Shown here: in pieces, positions 1 through 7,808 of the stretch
Layout of the letters: each line of letters opens with the position of its first letter
Position numbering within the stretch: the first letter of the stretch is position 1
Virus record (IMG/VR): IMGVR_UViG_2648501165_000010
Length of the DNA: 7,808 nucleotides
Strand: one strand, 5' to 3'
From: a virus
Taxonomy: Duplodnaviria > Heunggongvirae > Uroviricota > Caudoviricetes
The notes under the pieces: generated by a model
What the model was told of the DNA's origin: nothing
Seen by the model: only the letters and a program-made list of their open reading frames with translations
Databases searched by the model: none
Position numbers and translations under genes: made by a program

Positions 1-309
1 CGCTTCACGCGTATCGTGTTTCACATCCTCGATCTCACGTAACGCCGCACGACGACCAGTTTTAAAGTTCGTATCCAGCTGACCGATAATGGTTGCGCTA
101 ATCGCATTAATTTCTGACGTAAACGCGGACAGCGCAGGCTGATTACGCAGTACCTGTTCGATCTTCGCTTTCTAGGAAGCCTCACATTCACCATCTGCAT
201 AGGCCACCAGGTAGGCGGCGTTAATCACCACCTGTGCCAGATCGCGTTTTTCAAACTTTTTAATTTCCGTTGCCGCTCTGCGGGCTTTTTTACCAAAAAT
301 ACCAAACAT
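1..309 (-). CDS. TerB-like late-region protein, 3' partial, interrupted by an in-frame TAG at 172-174
   Basis: ATG at 307-309 with AAGGAA about 8 nt upstream. Reads MFGIFGKKARRAATEIKKFEKRDLAQVVINAAYLVAYADGECEAS (45 codons, 175-309), then TAG, then the same frame stays open for 57 more codons (KAKIEQVLRNQPALSAFTSEINAISATIIGQLDTNFKTGRRAALREIEDVKHDTREA) to the window edge. The AYADGE...EKAKIE pattern resembles the TerB family by recall only. The track ORF start at 456 is an upstream in-frame extension without a better RBS. Confidence 0.5.
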
Positions 310-479
310 CGTGACGTTCCTTTGGGTGGGTGAGCCAACGCCCGGGAGCGATCTGCCCACAGAGAAAGTCACACTGACCACTCCGTAAGCTCCCCCCCGA
401 AAGGCTCTGTGGTTGGTATGCGCCGGGCGTGGCGCGGATACAAAAAAGGTCCGCAAAAGCGAGCGAGGGAAAATAAGTG

Positions 480-556
480 TGGTGCGTTGTACTGGGTTCG
501 AACCAGTGACCGATTGCTTAGAAGGCTGGCGTTCTATCCCGATGAGCTAATGGCGG
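480..556 (-). tRNA. Hybrid tRNA-like element, probable pseudo-tRNA (3' half tRNA-Arg-like with encoded ACCA, 5' half like the 904-979 tRNA-like gene)
   Basis: Reverse complement gives T-arm ACTGG-TTCGAAC-CCAGT, acceptor 3' strand ACAACGC, discriminator A and CCA. The 5' strand CCGCCAT cannot pair with that acceptor, and the anticodon stem CCAGC/GCAAT does not pair. Positions 483-525 are about 90% identical to 817-860. Confidence 0.3.
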
Positions 557-577
557 TTGGTGGCCCTTGCTGGATTT
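557..577 (-). tRNA. 3' terminal fragment of a tRNA-Ile(CAU)-like gene, truncated by the gap
   Basis: Reverse complement ends AAATCCAGCAAGGGCCACCA, the same 3' end as at 981-1010, and runs straight into the N run. Confidence 0.35.
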
Positions 578-652
578 NNNNNNNNNNNNNNNNNNNNNNN
601 NNNNNNNNNNNNNNNNNNNNNNNNNNNNNNNNNNNNNNNNNNNNNNNNNNNN
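578..652. other. Assembly gap (75 N)
   Basis: Run of n characters. Confidence 0.97.
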
Positions 653-779
653 GTAGGATGATAACGTTACGAAATCAATGTTGCAAGAGTTCACAAATTC
701 ACTGATTCAAAATTATTCTTGTAAAAAATCTTTTAACGTCAGGCACAAAGAGCCTGTACATAGATTTGTGTAATTGCCT

Positions 780-789
780 NNNNNNNNNN
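780..789. other. Assembly gap (10 N)
   Basis: Run of n characters. Confidence 0.97.
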
Positions 790-813
790 AAAAGCGAGCC
801 GGGAAAATAAGTG

Positions 814-890
814 TAGCGCGTTGTACTGGAGTCGAACCAGTGACCGATTGCTTAGAAGGCAATTGCTCTGTCCTGCTGAGCTAACAACGC
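814..890 (-). tRNA. tRNA-Arg, anticodon UCU (reads AGA/AGG), phage argO-like; 3' CCA not encoded (GCTA)
   Basis: Perfect cloverleaf on the reverse complement: acceptor GCGTTGT/ACAACGC, D-stem GCTC/GAGC, anticodon stem ATTGC/GCAAT with loop CTTCTAA, T-arm ACTGG-TTCGACT-CCAGT, discriminator G. The three bases after the discriminator are CTA. Confidence 0.7.
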
Positions 891-903
891 AGAATACCGA
901 TAA

Positions 904-979
904 TGGACCACCACCGGGGACTCGAACCTCGCACACTCAACTTAAAGGGTTGACGCTCTTTCCTGATGGCTAGTGGCGG
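904..979 (-). tRNA. Atypical tRNA-like gene with encoded CCA; anticodon loop CCTTTAA (UUU with C33), weak D-arm; possibly degenerate
   Basis: Acceptor CCGCCAC/GTGGTGG pairs with one G-U, T-loop TTCGAGT, anticodon stem TCAAC/GTTGA, discriminator T then CCA. The D-stem does not pair canonically and one T-stem pair is A-C. Confidence 0.35.
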
Positions 980-980
980 T

Positions 981-1010
981 TGGTGGCCCTTGCTGGATTT
1001 GAACCAGCGA
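981..1010 (-). tRNA. 3' part of a tRNA-Ile(CAU)-like gene (ileZ-like); 5' part lost in the gap
   Basis: Reverse complement TCGCTGGTTCAAATCCAGCAAGGGCCACCA matches the T-arm, acceptor and CCA of E. coli minor tRNA-Ile2 by recall. The gap follows at 1011. Confidence 0.45.
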
Positions 1011-1020
1011 NNNNNNNNNN
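1011..1020. other. Assembly gap (10 N)
   Basis: Run of n characters. Confidence 0.97.
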
Positions 1021-1056
1021 TTACGAAATCAATGTTGCAAGCATACAAAAATCACC

Positions 1057-1101
1057 CTTATCTCCTCCACCAGCGCATTCACCATGTCTATCCGAGATAA
1101 G
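1057..1101. repeat. Inverted repeat (8-bp perfect stem CTTATCTC/GAGATAAG, 29-nt loop) between the tR'-like terminator and the tRNA cluster
   Basis: Direct reading of 1057-1064 against 1094-1101. Confidence 0.5.
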
Positions 1102-1107
1102 TGGCAC

Positions 1108-1134
1108 AAAAAAACCCGCTTGTGGGCGGGTTTT
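1108..1134 (-). terminator. Bidirectional intrinsic terminator, tR'-like for the late transcript
   Basis: Stem CCCGC (1115-1119) / GCGGG (1126-1130), flanked by A7 on the plus strand (7 U on the minus transcript) and TTTTGTTT on the other side. Confidence 0.7.
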
Positions 1135-1185
1135 GTTTGCTTTTGCCATCACGTACAAAATCGGCAAAATATCAGATTTGCATGA

Positions 1186-1214
1186 AATATATGCCTTTCA
1201 ATCTACTTTTGCAA
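1186..1214 (-). promoter_or_regulatory. Candidate late promoter (pR'-like) overlapping the stop codon of the Q-like gene
   Basis: Minus strand reads TTGCAA, a 17-nt spacer, then TATATT, about 45-70 nt upstream of the terminator. This geometry matches lambdoid pR'/qut/tR' regions. Confidence 0.4.
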
Positions 1215-1887
1215 CACTTTGCTTTGAAAATGCCGCCTTTTGTTTTGAACGTGTTCTCATTACAAATAATAAAGCCTCACTATCCAGTCGGTGAAAAATG
1301 TGTTTCATTGCAACCCAGTGACGAGTAAATGTTTTGGACCAGTTTTTAGTTGTCACTCCCGCCAGTAATGCCAGCTCCTGATATTCATAACCTTCCCCAC
1401 CAAAAAGTTCTGCTTTTACTGCCTGCGCCGCCAGCCAGATTAATTTTTTCAGGCGTTCCTGCGTTTTCCCAGCAATTTTTCTGGTACCGGATTGAGTATT
1501 AAATTCATTCCACGCCCACTGTGTTATCGCGATCTGATATTCCCAACAAATACTCCCGCTGTAACACCACAACAACCAGGCTTTATGATGTTCTTCAAGA
1601 GACAGAACAGCCCGCCGCCACGATGATGTCGAAAACTCAACCGGACTGACCAGAGGAATTGACGTCACCTTCGCCAGCGATTGCTTTCCCGGGATTGGTG
1701 GATTATCCCGCGTTATCATTTTTCCAGTCACTTCATCGCGGTACCGGATTTTTTTTCGCCTGTAACGCCCTGTATCGAACATGGCATTCTCCTGCCAGGC
1801 TTCAAGCTGACCTTTTGTTGCCCCACTCAAATCAGCGGTGGCGATAATGAGCTGCTCACGCACAAACTGTAAATAGTGGTTATTCAT
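1198..1887 (-). CDS. Putative late-gene antiterminator, Q-family-like (229 aa), assigned mainly by position
   Basis: ORF directly downstream of rusA with an ATGA stop/start overlap and GGAG 6 nt upstream of the ATG at 1885-1887. It is followed by the promoter, terminator and tRNA cluster. The track's start at 1893 is a GTG two codons further upstream. No similarity to lambda Q was recognised. Confidence 0.5.
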   Translation of the reverse strand: MNNHYLQFVREQLIIATADLSGATKGQLEAWQENAMFDTGRYRRKKIRYRDEVTGKMITRDNPPIPGKQSLAKVTSIPLVSPVEFSTSSWRRAVLSLEEHHKAWLLWCYSGSICWEYQIAITQWAWNEFNTQSGTRKIAGKTQERLKKLIWLAAQAVKAELFGGEGYEYQELALLAGVTTKNWSKTFTRHWVAMKHIFHRLDSEALLFVMRTRSKQKAAFSKQSVAKVD

Positions 1888-2249
1888 GCGCACTCCAGTT
1901 CTGTGATTTTTATCCCCAGCCGCCCACCAGGAACGAGCTGACCGCGCACAATATTGATTTCATCAAACTGCTCGTCGTCTATGAGAAGTCCGGCATGCGT
2001 CAGCACATCCAGTGGTGCTTTCAGGATATTGTCCAGGTCACGACGGCGCTTATCCGGTGGCTCTGCAATAATCTTTATCACCAGCCTTCCGGACAGGTTT
2101 AATTTCAGCCGCTGCTGGCGAACAATTAGCGCCACATCACGGCGATAACGCTTTCCGGCTTCCGAGATGAAATACGTATTGCCATGACGTCGCCAGTAGG
2201 TATTCACCGTCGGCGGGTAAGGCAAAACAAATTCTATCCGTTCAGTCAT
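1884..2249 (-). CDS. rusA: Holliday-junction resolvase RusA (121 aa)
   Basis: MTERIEFVLPYPPTVNTYWRRHG...DKRRRDLDNILKAPLDVLTHAGLLIDDEQF...GGRLGIKITE matches the RusA family (catalytic D-x-D-N region) by recall. The start ATG abuts the stop of the upstream gene. Confidence 0.9.
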   Translation of the reverse strand: MTERIEFVLPYPPTVNTYWRRHGNTYFISEAGKRYRRDVALIVRQQRLKLNLSGRLVIKIIAEPPDKRRRDLDNILKAPLDVLTHAGLLIDDEQFDEINIVRGQLVPGGRLGIKITELECA

Positions 2250-2519
2250 TCATGCTTTCCACTTCAGGACACCCGAATTTCTCGCGTGCATTAAAAAACG
2301 AATCAGCAACAACAGCTGGCTGCCGTGTTTTTCTTCAAAATCTTTTACCCCGGCGTGCAGTTCGTTATGACATTTACGGCACAGCGGAATAACAAACAAA
2401 TCATCAGCCTTTGTTCCCATCCCTCCCAGTCCATGACCAATGATGTGATGCGGATCATCTGCCTGATTACCGCACGTCATGCATTTCTGCGTTTTTACCC
2501 AGCGCGTGTATACAGGCAT
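2250..2519 (-). CDS. Small Cys/His zinc-ribbon (HNH-like) protein, paralogous to the C-terminal module of the 2603-3505 gene; YbcO/DUF1364-like by recall
   Basis: MPVYTRWVKTQKCMTCGNQADDPHHIIGHGLGGMGTKADDLFVIPLCRKCHNELHAG... The open frame continues upstream to the gap at 2592 with homology to the ydfU-like internal region (VVSIAVDPESP versus VVSITVDPESP), so the true 5' end may lie in the gap. Confidence 0.5.
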   Translation of the reverse strand: MPVYTRWVKTQKCMTCGNQADDPHHIIGHGLGGMGTKADDLFVIPLCRKCHNELHAGVKDFEEKHGSQLLLLIRFLMHARNSGVLKWKA

Positions 2520-2592
2520 CTCTTCCCGTTGTGGTTTCTGGCGCTGGAGATACTGAGCCGGTGACTCCGGATCAACGGCAATGCTGACCACC

Positions 2593-2602
2593 NNNNNNNN
2601 NN
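2593..2602. other. Assembly gap (10 N) of unknown true length, between two paralogous zinc modules
   Basis: Run of n characters. The reading frame of the conserved domain changes across the gap. Confidence 0.95.
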
Positions 2603-3851: not shown

Positions 3852-4103
3852 TTATTCTCCTGAAAAAGCAGAAAAGCCAGCTTTTATTCCGATCTCTTTC
3901 AATGCCTGTAATGAAGTGACAAACTCACCTTCGCGCAAGATAAATCCGTCCGTGACCCGAGCATCCACAAAATTAATTAACGCAGCCCCATTCTTTCGCA
4001 AACACATAATGCGGTAATGACTAACAAGATTTCCATTTTCAACGCACACAGCATAGAGGCCATCTTCACAAAAAATTTTACGCAGTTCTTCGATGTTCAT
4101 CAT
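3852..4103 (-). CDS. rem: Rem-like small prophage protein (83 aa)
   Basis: 83-aa ORF with GGAAGGA SD, at the position and size of K-12 Qin rem (between ydfU and hokD) as I recall it. Confidence 0.65.
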   Translation of the reverse strand: MMNIEELRKIFCEDGLYAVCVENGNLVSHYRIMCLRKNGAALINFVDARVTDGFILREGEFVTSLQALKEIGIKAGFSAFSGE

Positions 4104-4181
4104 CAGAATCCTTCCGGATAATTAGCTCTCCCCTTTAAGGGACCATCCCTCTTATCCCTGCGCGCTACTTAAGTATTTTTG

Positions 4182-4211
4182 ATTCTATTCCGGCGCCGTC
4201 CGGAACTTCAA
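4182..4211 (-). promoter_or_regulatory. Candidate rem promoter with a palindromic spacer (possible operator)
   Basis: Minus strand TTGAAG, 18-nt spacer, TAGAAT. The spacer 4188-4205 is the inverted repeat TTCCGG-N6-CCGGAA. Confidence 0.35.
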
Positions 4212-4225
4212 ACGCGTTGAAAATA

Positions 4226-4249
4226 AAAACAAAAACCCGCCGAAGCGGG
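4226..4249 (-). terminator. Intrinsic terminator ending the relB-relE-hokD transcript
   Basis: Minus strand CCCGC-TTCG-GCGGG followed by TTTTTGTTTTT, about 70 nt after the hokD stop. Confidence 0.7.
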
Positions 4250-4319
4250 TTAAGTGCGGGTGCGTTGAGGATGCCTGACACATCAGAGGTGGCGAGGGAT
4301 TTCTCCCCCGCCGGGTCTC

Positions 4320-4475
4320 TTACTCCTCAGGTTCGTAAGCTGTGAAGACAGCGACCTCCGTCTGGCCGGTTCGGATTCGTACCTCGCAGAGGTCTTTCCT
4401 CGTTACCAGTGCCGTCACAATGACGGTTAAACAGATGACGATCAGAGCGATTAATATCGCCTTTTGCTGCTTCAT
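4320..4475 (-). CDS. hokD: Hok-family membrane toxin HokD (RelF), 51 aa
   Basis: Translation MKQQKAILIALIVICLTVIVTALVTRKDLCEVRIRTGQTEVAVFTAYEPEE with AGGAGAAG SD. The six-frame track misses it because it lists only the antisense ORF. Confidence 0.9.
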   Translation of the reverse strand: MKQQKAILIALIVICLTVIVTALVTRKDLCEVRIRTGQTEVAVFTAYEPEE

Positions 4476-4546
4476 AGCCTGCTTCTCCTGTCAACGCAAA
4501 GCAGAAGTGTCACCTTCGGTGCGAAACAGAGATGTCATGCTTTGGT

Positions 4547-4834
4547 TCAGAGAATGCGTTTGACCGCCTCGCTATATACTTCCGAGCGTTCTCTTTTCCC
4601 AACAGAAATCACGAAAACGACAACTTTCTCGTCTATAACCTGGTATACAAGGCGATAGCCTGAAGACCGGAGCTTAATCTTGTAACAATCAGGCATACCA
4701 CGGAGCTTGTTTGCTTCAATCCGGGGTGACTCAAGTACTTCAACCAGCTTCTTTTTCAACTGTTCACGTACCGTCGAGCCCAGCTTTCGCCATTCCTTTA
4801 GTGCCCGCTCGTCAAAATCCAGAAAATACGCCAT
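4547..4834 (-). CDS. relE: mRNA interferase toxin RelE (95 aa)
   Basis: MAYFLDFDERALKEWRKLG...VISVGKRERSEVYSEAVKRIL is essentially the K-12 RelE sequence by recall. The start overlaps the relB stop. Confidence 0.95.
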   Translation of the reverse strand: MAYFLDFDERALKEWRKLGSTVREQLKKKLVEVLESPRIEANKLRGMPDCYKIKLRSSGYRLVYQVIDEKVVVFVISVGKRERSEVYSEAVKRIL

Positions 4835-5073
4835 CAGAGTTCATCCAGCGTCACACGTACTGGCTTAGGATTACGAAGCCGTTCTTTCACTATCTCCACA
4901 AGTTCAGCATCTTCATCACTCAGGAGTGTCTGTTTGAACGGCAAGCGTTCATTGTCAGCGATATACTCGAGCATGAGACGAAGCGCTTCAGAAGGAGTTA
5001 CACCCATTTTTTCAAGCGCGGCGTAAGAACGCGCTTTAAGTTCATCGTCAATACGCAGGTTAATGCTACCCAT
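4834..5073 (-). CDS. relB: Antitoxin RelB (79 aa)
   Basis: MGSINLRIDDELKARSYA...RNPKPVRVTLDEL matches K-12 RelB by recall. Confidence 0.95.
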   Translation of the reverse strand: MGSINLRIDDELKARSYAALEKMGVTPSEALRLMLEYIADNERLPFKQTLLSDEDAELVEIVKERLRNPKPVRVTLDEL

Positions 5074-5084
5074 GTCTTACACCT

Positions 5085-5137
5085 CTTGTAATTACAAATG
5101 TCATTACAAGTATCGCACTACAACATGCTTAGGGCAA
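5085..5137 (-). promoter_or_regulatory. relBE promoter and relO-type palindromic operator
   Basis: Minus strand TTGCCC, 17-nt spacer, GATACT, followed by the near-palindrome CTTGTAATGACATTTGTAATTACAAG (5085-5110), AGAGGTG SD, and the relB ATG. Confidence 0.7.
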
Positions 5138-5403
5138 GTCACGAAGGAAGTCAGAAAGTAGTCGTAAGAACGGTGATCACTGTCCGCTTTGTGCCAGGAG
5201 CAGCCATTGCTAAGTCCATCCTGTATTGTGCAGGTCAGCTCGTTTTTAAAGAGTCCGGCCATCATCTTACTGGTACAGACACCATATACTTTGTGACGGT
5301 CAGGCTACATATGCACAACTCAACTTATTCATCTATTTTTTGCTTTAGCATGTCAGTGTTGCTTTCTCGTCGGCGGGTGAGCGGTGACCTGACCTGTCGA
5401 TAA
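5098..5403 (+). CDS. ydfV: YdfV-like ORF (101 aa), doubtful as a real gene
   Basis: Position and length match the ydfV ORF annotated in K-12 Qin as I recall it. The ATG lies inside the relO palindrome and has no SD. Confidence 0.3.
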   Translation: MSLQVSHYNMLRASHEGSQKVVVRTVITVRFVPGAAIAKSILYCAGQLVFKESGHHLTGTDTIYFVTVRLHMHNSTYSSIFCFSMSVLLSRRRVSGDLTCR

Positions 5404-5555
5404 AGGAACGTAACACGTTTTATGCAACACCCGCATGCGGCAGAAAATTATTGCCGAACGTTTACCCCTGTCAACAAGCTTTACTTTCTGAGGCGCGCCA
5501 GCCCGCGAGGAAAACAATCTGAACATCAAACAATTAATGACACAAGAAATACGAT

Positions 5556-5582
5556 TAAAGATTTTTTTGTGCATGCCGATAG
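5556..5582 (+). promoter_or_regulatory. Sigma-28 (FliA) class-3 flagellar promoter for flxA
   Basis: TAAAGATT, 11-nt spacer, GCCGATAG against the consensus TAAAGTTT-N11-GCCGATAA, 24 nt upstream of the flxA ATG. Confidence 0.7.
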
Positions 5583-5605
5583 TGCTTTTTTAAAAGGAGA
5601 AATCT

Positions 5606-5938
5606 ATGTCTGTCACAATTCAGGGAAATACCTCAACCGTTATTTCAAACAACTCCGCCCCGGAAGGAACATCAGAAATAGCCAAAATCACAAGACAAAT
5701 TCAGGTGCTGACTGAAAAGCTTGGGAAAATCTCATCGGAAGAGGGGATGACGACACAGCAGAAAAAAGAAATGGCTGCATTGGTACAGAAGCAAATTGAA
5801 AGCCTCTGGGCTCAACTGGAGCAGTTGTTAAGGCAGCAGGCAGAGAAAAAGAATGAAGACGCGACAGTTCAGCCTGATAAAAAAGAAGAGAAAAAAGACG
5901 ATACAAATACCGCTGGCACCATTGATATTTACGTCTAA
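5606..5938 (+). CDS. flxA: FlxA (110 aa), FliA-regulated prophage protein
   Basis: MSVTIQGNTSTVISNNSAPEG...TAGTIDIYV with AAGGAG SD matches K-12 FlxA by recall. The middle is coiled-coil-like and the tail is charged (KKEEKKDD). Confidence 0.9.
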   Translation: MSVTIQGNTSTVISNNSAPEGTSEIAKITRQIQVLTEKLGKISSEEGMTTQQKKEMAALVQKQIESLWAQLEQLLRQQAEKKNEDATVQPDKKEEKKDDTNTAGTIDIYV

Positions 5939-5952
5939 GTGACAGCCGTATT

Positions 5953-5977
5953 GTGGCCCTCATCGGGCCACTTTTCG
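5953..5977 (+). terminator. Intrinsic terminator after flxA
   Basis: GTGGCCC-TCATC-GGGCCAC followed by TTTTCG. Confidence 0.6.
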
Positions 5978-6254
5978 CCATCAGCCTTTTCTTTAAAGAC
6001 ATATTATCTTTGTATCATTTCTGATAGTTAACATTACAAGATATAAGTAATGGACGCACTCCCAATTAGTCTATTTAAATCGCCACGAGTTTAACTGACA
6101 ACCCATGATCAATTATGAATTGCAACTATTTCTGTAGTCACTTTTGTGGGGACAGTCCACAAAACTGCCAACTTCCGCTTCTTGCTCTTAGCGGACATTA
6201 GCATAGGCTATTTACCATAACGCCTCATTACGCGCACCGCCCAGACTGACTCAG

Positions 6255-6320
6255 CGCGTTTCTGGCATATCCCCGGTAAAACAAGTAACAAACCACCCGA
6301 AAATGAACACCAGAAACGCG
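6255..6320. repeat. 11-bp perfect inverted repeat (CGCGTTTCTGG / CCAGAAACGCG) separated by 44 bp, about 55 bp beyond the transposase stop
   Basis: Direct reading of 6255-6265 against 6310-6320. Confidence 0.6.
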
Positions 6321-6329
6321 ACTTAAGAA

Positions 6330-7770
6330 TCTACCCTATGAATGGATATGCACTCAACCGAATCGATCTTGGTTTCAATCTTTTTTATCGGGATCAGGCT
6401 TCTTTTTAGGTAACTTCGGGGGCTTAACTTGCTGATGACTTTGCGTTCGGCGCGTAAGCCAGGGATGGTCAGCTTTAGGTTTAACATAGTATTTTGAGCG
6501 TAAATCAATACGGGCATTATCCACTCGTTCATGGACACTCTTTTCATCATCCAGTGGTATAGGCTCCGGGCCATCAACATACTTTTCCCAGCCCGGCGCT
6601 TTCCCGTCATACAGAACGTTAATTTCACCGTCAAAGTTCTCGCATACAGTAACAACCGAATGCCTAAGTCGATATCCCCGGCCCTCACTGCGTACCTGAA
6701 ACGCACTGCTTTTGTACTGGAAAGTGAGATTTTTAGACAGAACGCGCTTCGCCTGTAGGCTGAAGATATAACCCAGTTCCTCTTCAGAATGGTGCACATC
6801 AAGATGAGCATTATCAGTAGTACGAGGCGACGTAGCGAACCGGTTGTTATAGGCTTCAATAAAGGTCGGCAACCATGCATTTGCTGTTTCAATATCACTG
6901 ATATTCTGAAGCCGCATTTCTTTGACCAGCCTGTCCTGTAGTGTCTGATTGGCGCGCTCTACCCGCCCTTTTGCCTGCGGGCTGTTGGCATGGATTGGCT
7001 CGATGCCCAGTGTCTTTATCGCACGAGTGAACTGGGTCAGCTCACCTTCCCGCTCTGGGTTATTTACCCTGAATATACTGTGTCTATCAGAGTAGAGAGC
7101 GAGCGGTACGCCATGATCATTAAGGTAACCCCGGAGGGTTTCCATGTAAGCCCGGGTTGTTTCAGCAGGCACAAAACGCAACGCCATCAACGCACTGGTG
7201 GCATCATCAATGAAAACGATCAGTGTACATCTGGGGCCTCGATTTTCAAACCAGTCATGAGGTGAGCCATCAATCTGGATCAGTTCACCGTAAGATGGTC
7301 GTCGCATGCGGCGTTGATATATACGGGCAATTTTACGACGGCGTTCACGCCATAACCCCTCTTCTATCATCCACTTTCTGAGAGTTTCAACGGATAAAGA
7401 TAAACCGTGTATCTCGCGCAATTTTTCGCACGCAAACGTAGGTCCAAAATCAGCGTAACGGCCTTTGAGGAGTGAAATTACTGTTGCTCTGAATTCAGTA
7501 GAAAAGGAATTATTAGGACGCTTTCCACGTCGGTGGGAAACCAGACCAGAAGGCCCTTCATTTCTATACCGTTGCACCAGACGTTTAACCTGCCGAATAG
7601 AAATGCCAATGCGTGCCGCAGCTTGTTCCTGAATAATCTGAAGTCGGTGGAGTTCCTTATGACTCATCGTAACAGTCTCTTTGATCATGAAAAATCCCCC
7701 AGAGAATTGTCTGGGGACATTTTAGAATGGTTCAAAGGGGACATTACAGCTTGGTGTTAACAATAGCCTG
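6330..7770 (-). mobile_element. IS-like element carrying the transposase; ends not resolved
   Basis: Transposase gene present, but no terminal inverted repeats could be matched between the left and right flanks inside the window. Confidence 0.25.
6375..7688 (-). CDS. DDE-type transposase/integrase (437 aa), N-terminal HTH plus rve-like core; IS481/ISNCY-like, family unresolved
   Basis: N-terminus IGISIRQVKRLVQRY looks like a helix-turn-helix. Candidate DDE residues are in QIDGSPHDW, LYSDRHSIF and SPQAKGRVERANQTL. The SD GGGGGA lies inside a 6-bp hairpin (CCCCAG/CTGGGG, 7697-7716). Confidence 0.85.
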   Translation of the reverse strand: MIKETVTMSHKELHRLQIIQEQAAARIGISIRQVKRLVQRYRNEGPSGLVSHRRGKRPNNSFSTEFRATVISLLKGRYADFGPTFACEKLREIHGLSLSVETLRKWMIEEGLWRERRRKIARIYQRRMRRPSYGELIQIDGSPHDWFENRGPRCTLIVFIDDATSALMALRFVPAETTRAYMETLRGYLNDHGVPLALYSDRHSIFRVNNPEREGELTQFTRAIKTLGIEPIHANSPQAKGRVERANQTLQDRLVKEMRLQNISDIETANAWLPTFIEAYNNRFATSPRTTDNAHLDVHHSEEELGYIFSLQAKRVLSKNLTFQYKSSAFQVRSEGRGYRLRHSVVTVCENFDGEINVLYDGKAPGWEKYVDGPEPIPLDDEKSVHERVDNARIDLRSKYYVKPKADHPWLTRRTQSHQQVKPPKLPKKKPDPDKKD

Positions 7771-7808
7771 CTTCTCCGTGCCTTTCGGCACGTAAGAGGC
7801 TAACCTAC

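Follow-up and report, generated by a model that had tools for sequence, protein, structure and literature searches.

The relBE operon is among the most studied toxin–antitoxin (TA) loci, and in the Qin prophage of Escherichia coli K-12 it is joined to a third gene, hokD (relF), which encodes a Hok-type toxin. Northern probes for relB, relE and relF of K-12 each show the same full-length mRNA, and the relF portion of this mRNA accumulates after toxin-induced cleavage (PMC3598666). The occurrence of hokD without the canonical hok/sok components has been attributed to a “genomic rearrangement,” with reference to Pedersen and Gerdes 1999 (PMC12214031, PMC7232551); the mechanism is not named there, and the linkage of hokD to relBE has so far been put down to this unexplained event. 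Here we analyze a relB-relE-hokD operon in a 7,808-nt stretch of DNA from a tailed phage (Caudoviricetes; IMG/VR record IMGVR_UViG_2648501165_000010), called the window below. According to our analysis, the operon is very probably a transposition chimera, in which an IS1202-family element carrying relBE, and preferring hok genes as targets, inserted into the region from the Shine-Dalgarno sequence (SD) to the ATG of a prophage hok gene. The composite operon and its missing mok and sok are already known from relBEF of the Qin prophage, whereas the transposon origin and the hok-directed insertion appear to be new.

The IS1202 family of insertion sequences (IS) is characterized by a single large DDE transposase with N-terminal helix-turn-helix (HTH) domains, TGT...ACA tips, and imperfect repeats of ~24-26 bp with an inner binding repeat. 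Passenger genes occur occasionally in the family, target duplications in the ISTde1 subgroup measure 15-17 bp, and one subgroup inserts site- and orientation-specifically at dif/pdif (PMC10132070; bioRxiv 10.1101/2022.12.17.520857). No published link of ISEsa1 or other IS1202 elements to relBE, hok or ncr was found in a search whose scope did not extend to many subscription papers, ISfinder and TnCentral, and an earlier recognition is therefore possible; a 2026 preprint surveying Hok also makes no mention of such a transposon–hok link.

Structure of the Transposon

The element comprises 3274 bp (window 4489-7762) with 5'-TGT...ACA-3' tips, and its left and right terminal inverted repeats (IRL and IRR) match at 19 of 26 positions (73% identity, established by manual and MAFFT alignment). 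It contains, in order, IRL, the transposase gene, flxA, ydfV, the relBE promoter, relB, relE and IRR. The IRR (4489-4540), delimited by alignment of the ends, terminates in the tip ...GCGTTGACA and holds an inner ATGTC repeat as well as a 15-codon open reading frame (ORF). The IRL (7713-7762), located by repeat search and end alignment, reads TGTTAACACCAAGCTGTAATGTCCCC with a second ATGTCCCC repeat; the inner ATGTC repeat stands at equal offset in both ends. On either side lies a copy of a perfect 15-bp direct repeat, GGAGAAGCAGGCTAT in minus-strand reading, the right one at 4474-4488 and the left one at 7763-7777. This repeat corresponds to the hokD SD through the AT of its ATG.

When the left flank, one repeat copy and hokD are joined, they recreate an uninterrupted leader like that of the hok/mok/sok locus L003, with one mismatch. 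Because of the ends, the transposase and this rebuilt leader, we read 4489-7762 as a transposon in the hokD start region and the 15-bp repeat as its target-site duplication. In a set of 5,426 complete E. coli genomes, about 4,700 carry the hokD cassette and 1,162 the full relBE-hokD stretch; in the loci without relBE, homology ends at window 4489, just 5' of the hokD SD. A simple recombination breakpoint at 4489/4490, where most hokD loci lose homology, was considered and dropped in favor of the transposon end.

The transposase ORF (6375-7688, minus strand, 437 residues) was assigned to the ISEsa1 group (“ISNCY”) of the IS1202 family by its match to NCBIfam NF033594 (455 bits; cut-off 250), by RefSeq naming (“IS1202-like element ISEsa1 family transposase”) and by pairwise alignment, in which it is 98% identical to WP_004196353.1, a RefSeq ISEsa1 family transposase, with a 9-residue gap excluded. 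It matches Pfam HTH_32, HTH_29 and rve_3. Relative to the 446-residue plasmid copies, it has an in-frame deletion of nine residues (SINRHITQE, in the N-terminal HTH) and one substitution; element lengths of 3274 and 3301 bp are both found in prophage contigs. RefSeq marks the short transposase form in E. coli MS1665 as a pseudogene and “ydfW.” The cargo of the element in the window consists of ydfV (5098-5403) and flxA (5606-5938), both on the plus strand and identified by RefSeq and Pfam.

Thus, the element has the family DDE transposase with its N-terminal HTH domains, imperfect TGT...ACA repeats with an inner repeat, and a target duplication. It differs from a simple IS of 1.3-2 kb with a transposase only, since the units bounded by duplications are 3.3, 4.2 and 12.8 kb long and include relBE and cargo, and judging from this composition it would behave as a “transporter IS” or a transposon. 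We also looked for a right end inside the element, near 6150-6170, which would define a 1.6-kb IS; the window has no convincing repeat there, and in the version with ncr genes a weak IRR-like TTTGGTTGACG was seen.

Between positions 2603 and 6559, the window differs from the K-12 Qin prophage by 7 single-nucleotide polymorphisms (SNPs; 99.8% identity), and window 1-2602 and 6560-7808 have no match to K-12. The K-12 prophage is without everything on the IRL side of window 6559, a point inside the transposase gene, and so has no IRL, no left repeat copy and no hok leader. The K-12 pseudogene “ydfW” represents the last 49 codons of the transposase ORF (window 6375-6524). The origin of relBEF is invisible in K-12 because that strain carries this truncated element. 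No complete E. coli genome in RefSeq matches window 4150-5200 above 99.4%, and the hokD allele of the source strain is therefore not in that set.

The course of events that we propose is as follows. The 3274-bp transposon would have entered the translation-initiation region of a prophage hok/sok locus, duplicating 15 bp over the hokD SD and AT(G) and cutting hokD off by 3.27 kb from its promoter, the tac and ucb boxes, the mok start and the Sok target. The relBE genes at the right end would then be transcribed outward through IRR, and RelB/RelE-controlled transcripts would run into hokD and end at the hok terminator.

The Displaced hok Leader

Although named sok, the Rfam family RF01794 covers the hok leader in sense orientation as far as the hok AUG; three loci that have no relBE show a match to it immediately ahead of hokD, with scores of 78-112 bits. 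In the window, the 3' end of the original hok mRNA leader, comprising the hairpin GTGCCGAAAGGCAC and the SD, was found on the minus strand at 7763-7808 (RF01794 positions 111-157); this segment stops at GGCTAT and abuts IRL, and its remainder lies beyond the window end. The extended locus of strain MS1665 (L092), which has the same arrangement, shows the full 157-position leader (104 bits) abutting IRL at the equivalent of window 7762-7933.

The leader with its tac and ucb boxes, mok start and Sok target is thus 3.27 kb away rather than directly upstream of hokD, and no Sok gene overlaps the toxin transcript; any such gene would sit in the displaced leader, mostly outside the window. An earlier note on this DNA had reported no obvious sok. 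This holds for 4226-5137, where Rfam finds neither sok nor mok at E up to 10, but the hok leader with the Sok target is present upstream, across the transposon. The same note saw no convincing Sok antisense promoter opposite hokD, and our consensus scan of the plus strand agrees, with no promoter-like site over hokD or the 15-codon ORF. The lone TAATAT that it pointed out at 4452-4457 on the plus strand does exist, but it is the product of one strain-specific SNP at position 4455 (T here, C in K-12, giving TAACAT), which also changes HokD by M7I.

The only Rfam signal in 4226-5137 is a sub-threshold isrK-like match on the hok 3' untranslated region and terminator (4230-4311, minus strand; 24.9-27.2 bits, gathering score 50), which was also seen in three other hokD loci.

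In E. coli O157:H7 TR01 (L005, 1995-2166), a canonical leader (77.7 bits in Rfam) carries 44 nt of IRR downstream of the mok SD region and ahead of the hokD SD; the mok ATG is removed (CTG) and an in-frame TGA is left. This locus is best read as a deletion derivative, in which the element would have been lost via ATCT microhomology together with the mok start. Its interpretation as an ancestral leader, with 44 more nt in common, was rejected.

The relB-relE-hokD Transcription Unit

All three genes lie on the minus strand. The antitoxin gene relB (5073-4834; Pfam PF04221, 112 bits) and the gene of the mRNA interferase toxin, relE (4834-4547, stop codon at 4549-4547; ParE_toxin PF05016, 51 bits), were identified from the ORF list and RefSeq annotation and overlap at TGATG, so that a RelB gene is followed by an overlapping gene for a toxin of the RelE/ParE fold. 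The 51-aa Hok/Gef membrane toxin is encoded by hokD (4475-4320; HOK_GEF PF01848, 80.5 bits; RefSeq annotation), with the SD GGAG at 4488-4485. Downstream are an fbi-like element of the hok 3' untranslated region, GCATCCTCAACGCACCCGC (4256-4274), complementary by direct reading to the tac box GCGGGTGCTTGAGG of hok leaders, and an intrinsic terminator of the hok type, a stem-loop with a T run (4251-4234), which forms the 3' end of the transcript.

This terminator is the sole minus-strand terminator-like site that the scan found in 4000-5400, with none between relE and hokD. The promoter/operator region of relBE (5074-5200, minus strand), which also marks the inner boundary of a conserved right arm of ~710 bp, is identical in sequence to that of K-12; its role is taken from the K-12 literature, from which autoregulation upstream of relB would be expected. 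The order of relB, relE, the 15-codon ORF and hokD given in the earlier note is confirmed by coordinates, and the three genes are supported by Pfam. Its single terminator and single transcription unit likewise stand, and the K-12 northern blots cited above support one unit. The RefSeq relBE proteins WP_000534858.1 and WP_000323025.1 recur in plasmid copies of the transposon, and RelE proteins from many genera have 100% identity to that of the window.

The 15-Codon Open Reading Frame and hokD Expression

The 15-codon ORF (MTSLFRTEGDTSALR and a stop codon; 4538-4491, minus strand) lies inside IRR. Its ATG is 8 nt past the relE stop, as the earlier note stated; the 15 nt that the note placed between the ORF end and the hokD SD are the distance to the hokD ATG, and the SD starts 2 nt past the ORF stop. 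The ORF is in frame with hokD, 63 nt upstream, at the position of the chromosomal mok extension (as in L003). This geometry speaks for regarding the ORF as a functional substitute for mok, in which ribosomes that finish relE would reinitiate on the ORF and then open, or reinitiate at, hokD, so that HokD would be coupled to translation of RelE and not to Sok. In the R1 hok/sok system, Hok is made only if mok is translated as far as the hok SD, and translation past the hok start is dispensable (PMC9841398); folding of the relBE-hokD mRNA context predicts a largely paired hokD SD and AUG (probability of being unpaired, 0.25 and 0.15), which would suit a coupling device.

However, no SD precedes the ORF, and a predicted stem contains its AUG. 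Among 16 distinct IRR variants in other genomes, nine have AGG, CCG or CCA instead of the ATG, and the variant base restores the ATGTCC motif of IRL; these nine include copies next to hok genes, such as L034. The sequence is kept unchanged beside non-hok DNA, as the end of a transposon, and the insertion at L019 leaves its hok gene without an SD, which argues against a consistently preserved device. In a fold of 335 nt, the relE stop region (UUCUCUG) is paired with the hokD SD, but the partners change when 110 nt more upstream are included and in other hok alleles, and no robust coupling structure emerged. A conserved coding sequence was therefore rejected, since the start codon is missing in nine of the 16 variants, and translational coupling through this ORF appears quite unlikely.

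Conservation here appears to follow the repeat motifs shared with the left end rather than coding. On these comparisons, the ORF is the right terminal inverted repeat, presumed to be transposase-binding DNA, with no evidence of a gene, and its frame and mok-like position result from where the element landed. The proposal of a short upstream ORF in place of mok is thus not supported.

What remains for hokD is its own SD, ATG, coding sequence, fbi-like 3' element and terminator. Its transcription should follow relBE autoregulation. Because the Sok target is not in the relBE-hokD mRNA, Sok should be unable to act on it, and the fbi element would have no tac partner there. The folding predictions suggest that little HokD is likely to be made from the full-length mRNA, except where upstream ribosomes or processing of the mRNA make the site accessible; HokD synthesis would then depend on relBE transcription and on its own partly occluded start region.

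Low-level A-to-I editing of a Tyr codon to Cys by TadA has been reported in hokD mRNA (PMC12214031). In the window, this codon is codon 46 (TAC in CTTACGAA, 4338-4340), and its editing context is intact.

Other Copies of the Element

Comparison of copies delimits a constant left arm, from IRL to window 6170 (1593 bp here; 1620 bp in copies without the 27-nt deletion), and a constant right arm of ~710 bp (window ~5200-4489) with the relBE promoter, relB, relE and IRR. Between the arms the cargo varies, and homology to other cargo variants resumes at window 5197-5203. In L090 (1501-5655), a DUF2158 gene and hypothetical ORFs stand between the transposase arm and the relBE arm, and larger versions carry nickel (ncrABCY) and chromate (chrBA) resistance genes in this place.

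Several insertions at hok genes have target duplications of their own. At the hok locus of an Enterobacter asburiae IncF plasmid, a 3.3-kb version is flanked by GGAGAAGAAGGCCA(T); a 4.2-kb cargo variant at the hok locus of a Citrobacter freundii IncFIB plasmid, by GGAGAAGAAGGCCATG; and a 3.3-kb version at a Hok/Gef gene of a Salmonella IncI plasmid, which we take to be pndA, by TGGAGGGGCTATGAT. Outside hok, plasmid pKOCBH-A of Klebsiella michiganensis (L088, 35656-48498) carries a 12.8-kb version (IRL, transposase gene, ncrYCBA, chrBA, relBE, IRR) bounded by the 16-bp repeat ATCACGGGGCACGATA in unrelated DNA. The duplications measure 14-16 bp in five insertions. Since each one at hok matches its own hok allele on both sides, these were separate insertion events; since the same end carries a 16-bp duplication in non-hok DNA, the sequence adjacent to relE is a working transposon end. 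Independent insertions in the same orientation at the SD-ATG of many hok-family alleles would each have made a relB-relE-hok arrangement.

In species-representative genomes, relE and ~60 nt of its 3' flank, ending in the IRR tip, are near-invariant, whereas the DNA that follows varies widely: some loci have unrelated DNA there, L016 has an inverted hok leader, and others have a hok gene whose product shares just 28-70% identity with HokD. The recurrence, in many genera and replicons, of relBE with a Hok-family gene downstream of it could also be expected of an old, vertically inherited three-gene operon that diverged in plasmids and prophages, with the repeats and transposase incidental. Such a history is extremely improbable. 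RelE and its flank, IRR included, are ~96-100% identical across loci in which the downstream Hok proteins are just 28-70% identical to HokD; the allele-matched duplications contradict it, the leader that was displaced is still intact across the element from hok, and in non-hok DNA, too, this relBE end is found beside a 16-bp duplication.

In two loci (L089, 2212-2228; L240), the IRR of one copy is followed by 15 nt of the hok SD region and the IRL of a second copy, which would represent a second insertion into the same target. An apparent minimal 2.3-kb element with transposase gene and relBE (H119) turned out to be two adjacent copies, an IRR with an IRL 15 nt on.

Apparent Target Preference

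Among the species-representative genomes, 29 loci with IRR gave 20 distinct junctions. Fifteen loci (nine distinct junctions) are at hok, and 11 distinct junctions are at non-hok DNA; relBE reads into hok in 14 of the 15 hok-adjacent loci, with L016 inverted. In metagenome contigs, an exact IRL scan recovered 78 left junctions, 68 of them of the hok-leader type, and in all 68 the transposase gene is next to the leader, with none inverted. These junctions span many allele-specific sequences, with the insertion point 3-13 nt upstream of the hok ATG, and seven further leader–IRL junctions were confirmed by Rfam matches ending at IRL. Among IMG/VR viral contigs, 71 of 77 loci have the Qin/hokD junction, and the hokD insertion has therefore also spread clonally with lambdoid prophages. 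Overall, hok start regions appear to be a landing site for the element on mobile replicons.

A genuine transposon could nevertheless be enriched at hok through selection or hitch-hiking, if insertions that disable hok/sok while providing relBE were tolerated and spread on plasmids and prophages. This explanation fits with the clonal spread of the Qin-type junction in viral contigs, with the recombinant flanks at L169 and with the fact that, in the species-representative set, about half of the distinct junctions lie outside hok. Against it stand the confinement of the insertion point to ~10 nt in at least nine distinct hok alleles, each with its own duplication or junction, and the uniform orientation (68/68 in metagenomes, 14/15 in genomes). 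The tandem copies 15 nt apart at the same target, which resemble tandem insertions in dif-targeting IS1202-family relatives, argue in the same direction. We consider selection or hitch-hiking in place of target choice an unlikely, though not negligible, source of the bias.

We are inclined to favor, with less assurance than the chimeric origin of the operon itself, a wider reading in which the ISEsa1 branch is a site- and orientation-specific transposon that prefers the hok SD-ATG. It would carry a constant outward relBE arm, each insertion would exchange mok/Sok control for the relBE promoter, relBEF would have arisen from one of these insertions, and what ISfinder lists as ISEsa1 would be the left arm alone.

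Several points weigh against these interpretations. ISEsa1 is listed at 1609 bp with no detectable duplication (PMC10132070); we suspect that this listing corresponds to the left arm (1593/1620 bp). The prophage copy in the window may be immobile, given the 9-aa deletion in its HTH, and the case for mobility of the element is comparative, drawn from several insertion sites, each with its own duplication. The flanks of L169 are mismatched and recombination between copies therefore occurs; part of the hok bias could come from post-insertion selection or from hok alleles recombining with one another and so propagating a few insertions. No motif common to hok and non-hok targets was obvious by eye.

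A palindrome is located just left of the duplication: GTGCCGAAAGGCAC at window 7779-7792, TGCCGNAAGGCA in hok leaders, TGCCGCAAGGCA or GCCGTAAGGC in plasmid hok/pnd leaders (L087, L090, L091), and TTAACCAGGTTAA at the non-hok site of pKOCBH-A (L088). The IRR holds a similar palindrome, CACCGAAGGTG. The palindrome left of the duplication may be a target determinant, with a single non-hok case among these examples.

Other Features of the Window

The window also contains genes for tRNA-Arg(tct) (816-890) and tRNA-Lys(ttt) (904-979) on the minus strand, downstream of a prophage Q antiterminator gene (1198-1893, PF06323). A strong terminator hairpin (1105-1189, minus strand) just downstream of the Q gene has sub-threshold Rfam matches to isrK, isrJ, Phe_leader and OrzO-P and probably corresponds to PR'-tR' of the lambdoid late operon.

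Implications and Comparison With Known Systems

The transposon origin explains why the hokD transcript is without mok and sok, what the K-12 pseudogene ydfW is, and why relBE with ~100% identical RelE is found throughout Enterobacterales, both on plasmids and on chromosomes. Should the hok start region prove a genuine target, the IS1202 family would have a second example of site-specific targeting besides dif/pdif, and one addiction module would be carried into another and disable it. This would bear on plasmid and prophage stability and on the spread of ncr/chr metal-resistance cargo.

Compared with K-12 relBEF, the genes, their order, the promoter region and the terminator in the window are the same; the window keeps the whole element, whereas K-12 has a truncated one, and HokD here carries M7I. 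With hok/mok/sok loci (R1 parB; L002, L003), the window shares a homologous hokD coding sequence, SD, fbi-like 3' element and terminator. In the relBE-hokD mRNA, however, relBE and IRR take the place of the leader, and this mRNA thus has neither tac and ucb boxes nor a mok start or Sok target.

The elements described here share the transposase type, tips, repeats and long duplications with the IS1202 family (ISEsa1, and the ISTde1 and ISAjo2/ISAba32 subgroups). They differ in their length (3.3-12.8 kb versus 1.3-2 kb), in the fixed relBE right end with variable cargo between the arms, in duplications of 14-16 bp, within or next to the ISTde1 range, where none is listed for ISEsa1, and in a preferred target that is the hok SD-ATG and not a XerCD site.

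Tn3-family transposons, as Lima-Mendez et al. are said to have described in mBio in 2020, carry TA pairs inside the transposition module. There, as here, a type II TA pair is a constant neighbor of the transposition functions, and the remaining cargo is variable. The two kinds of transposon differ in transposase family and in mechanism, and in the element described here the TA pair reads outward over the terminal repeat and captures the transcription of a host toxin gene.

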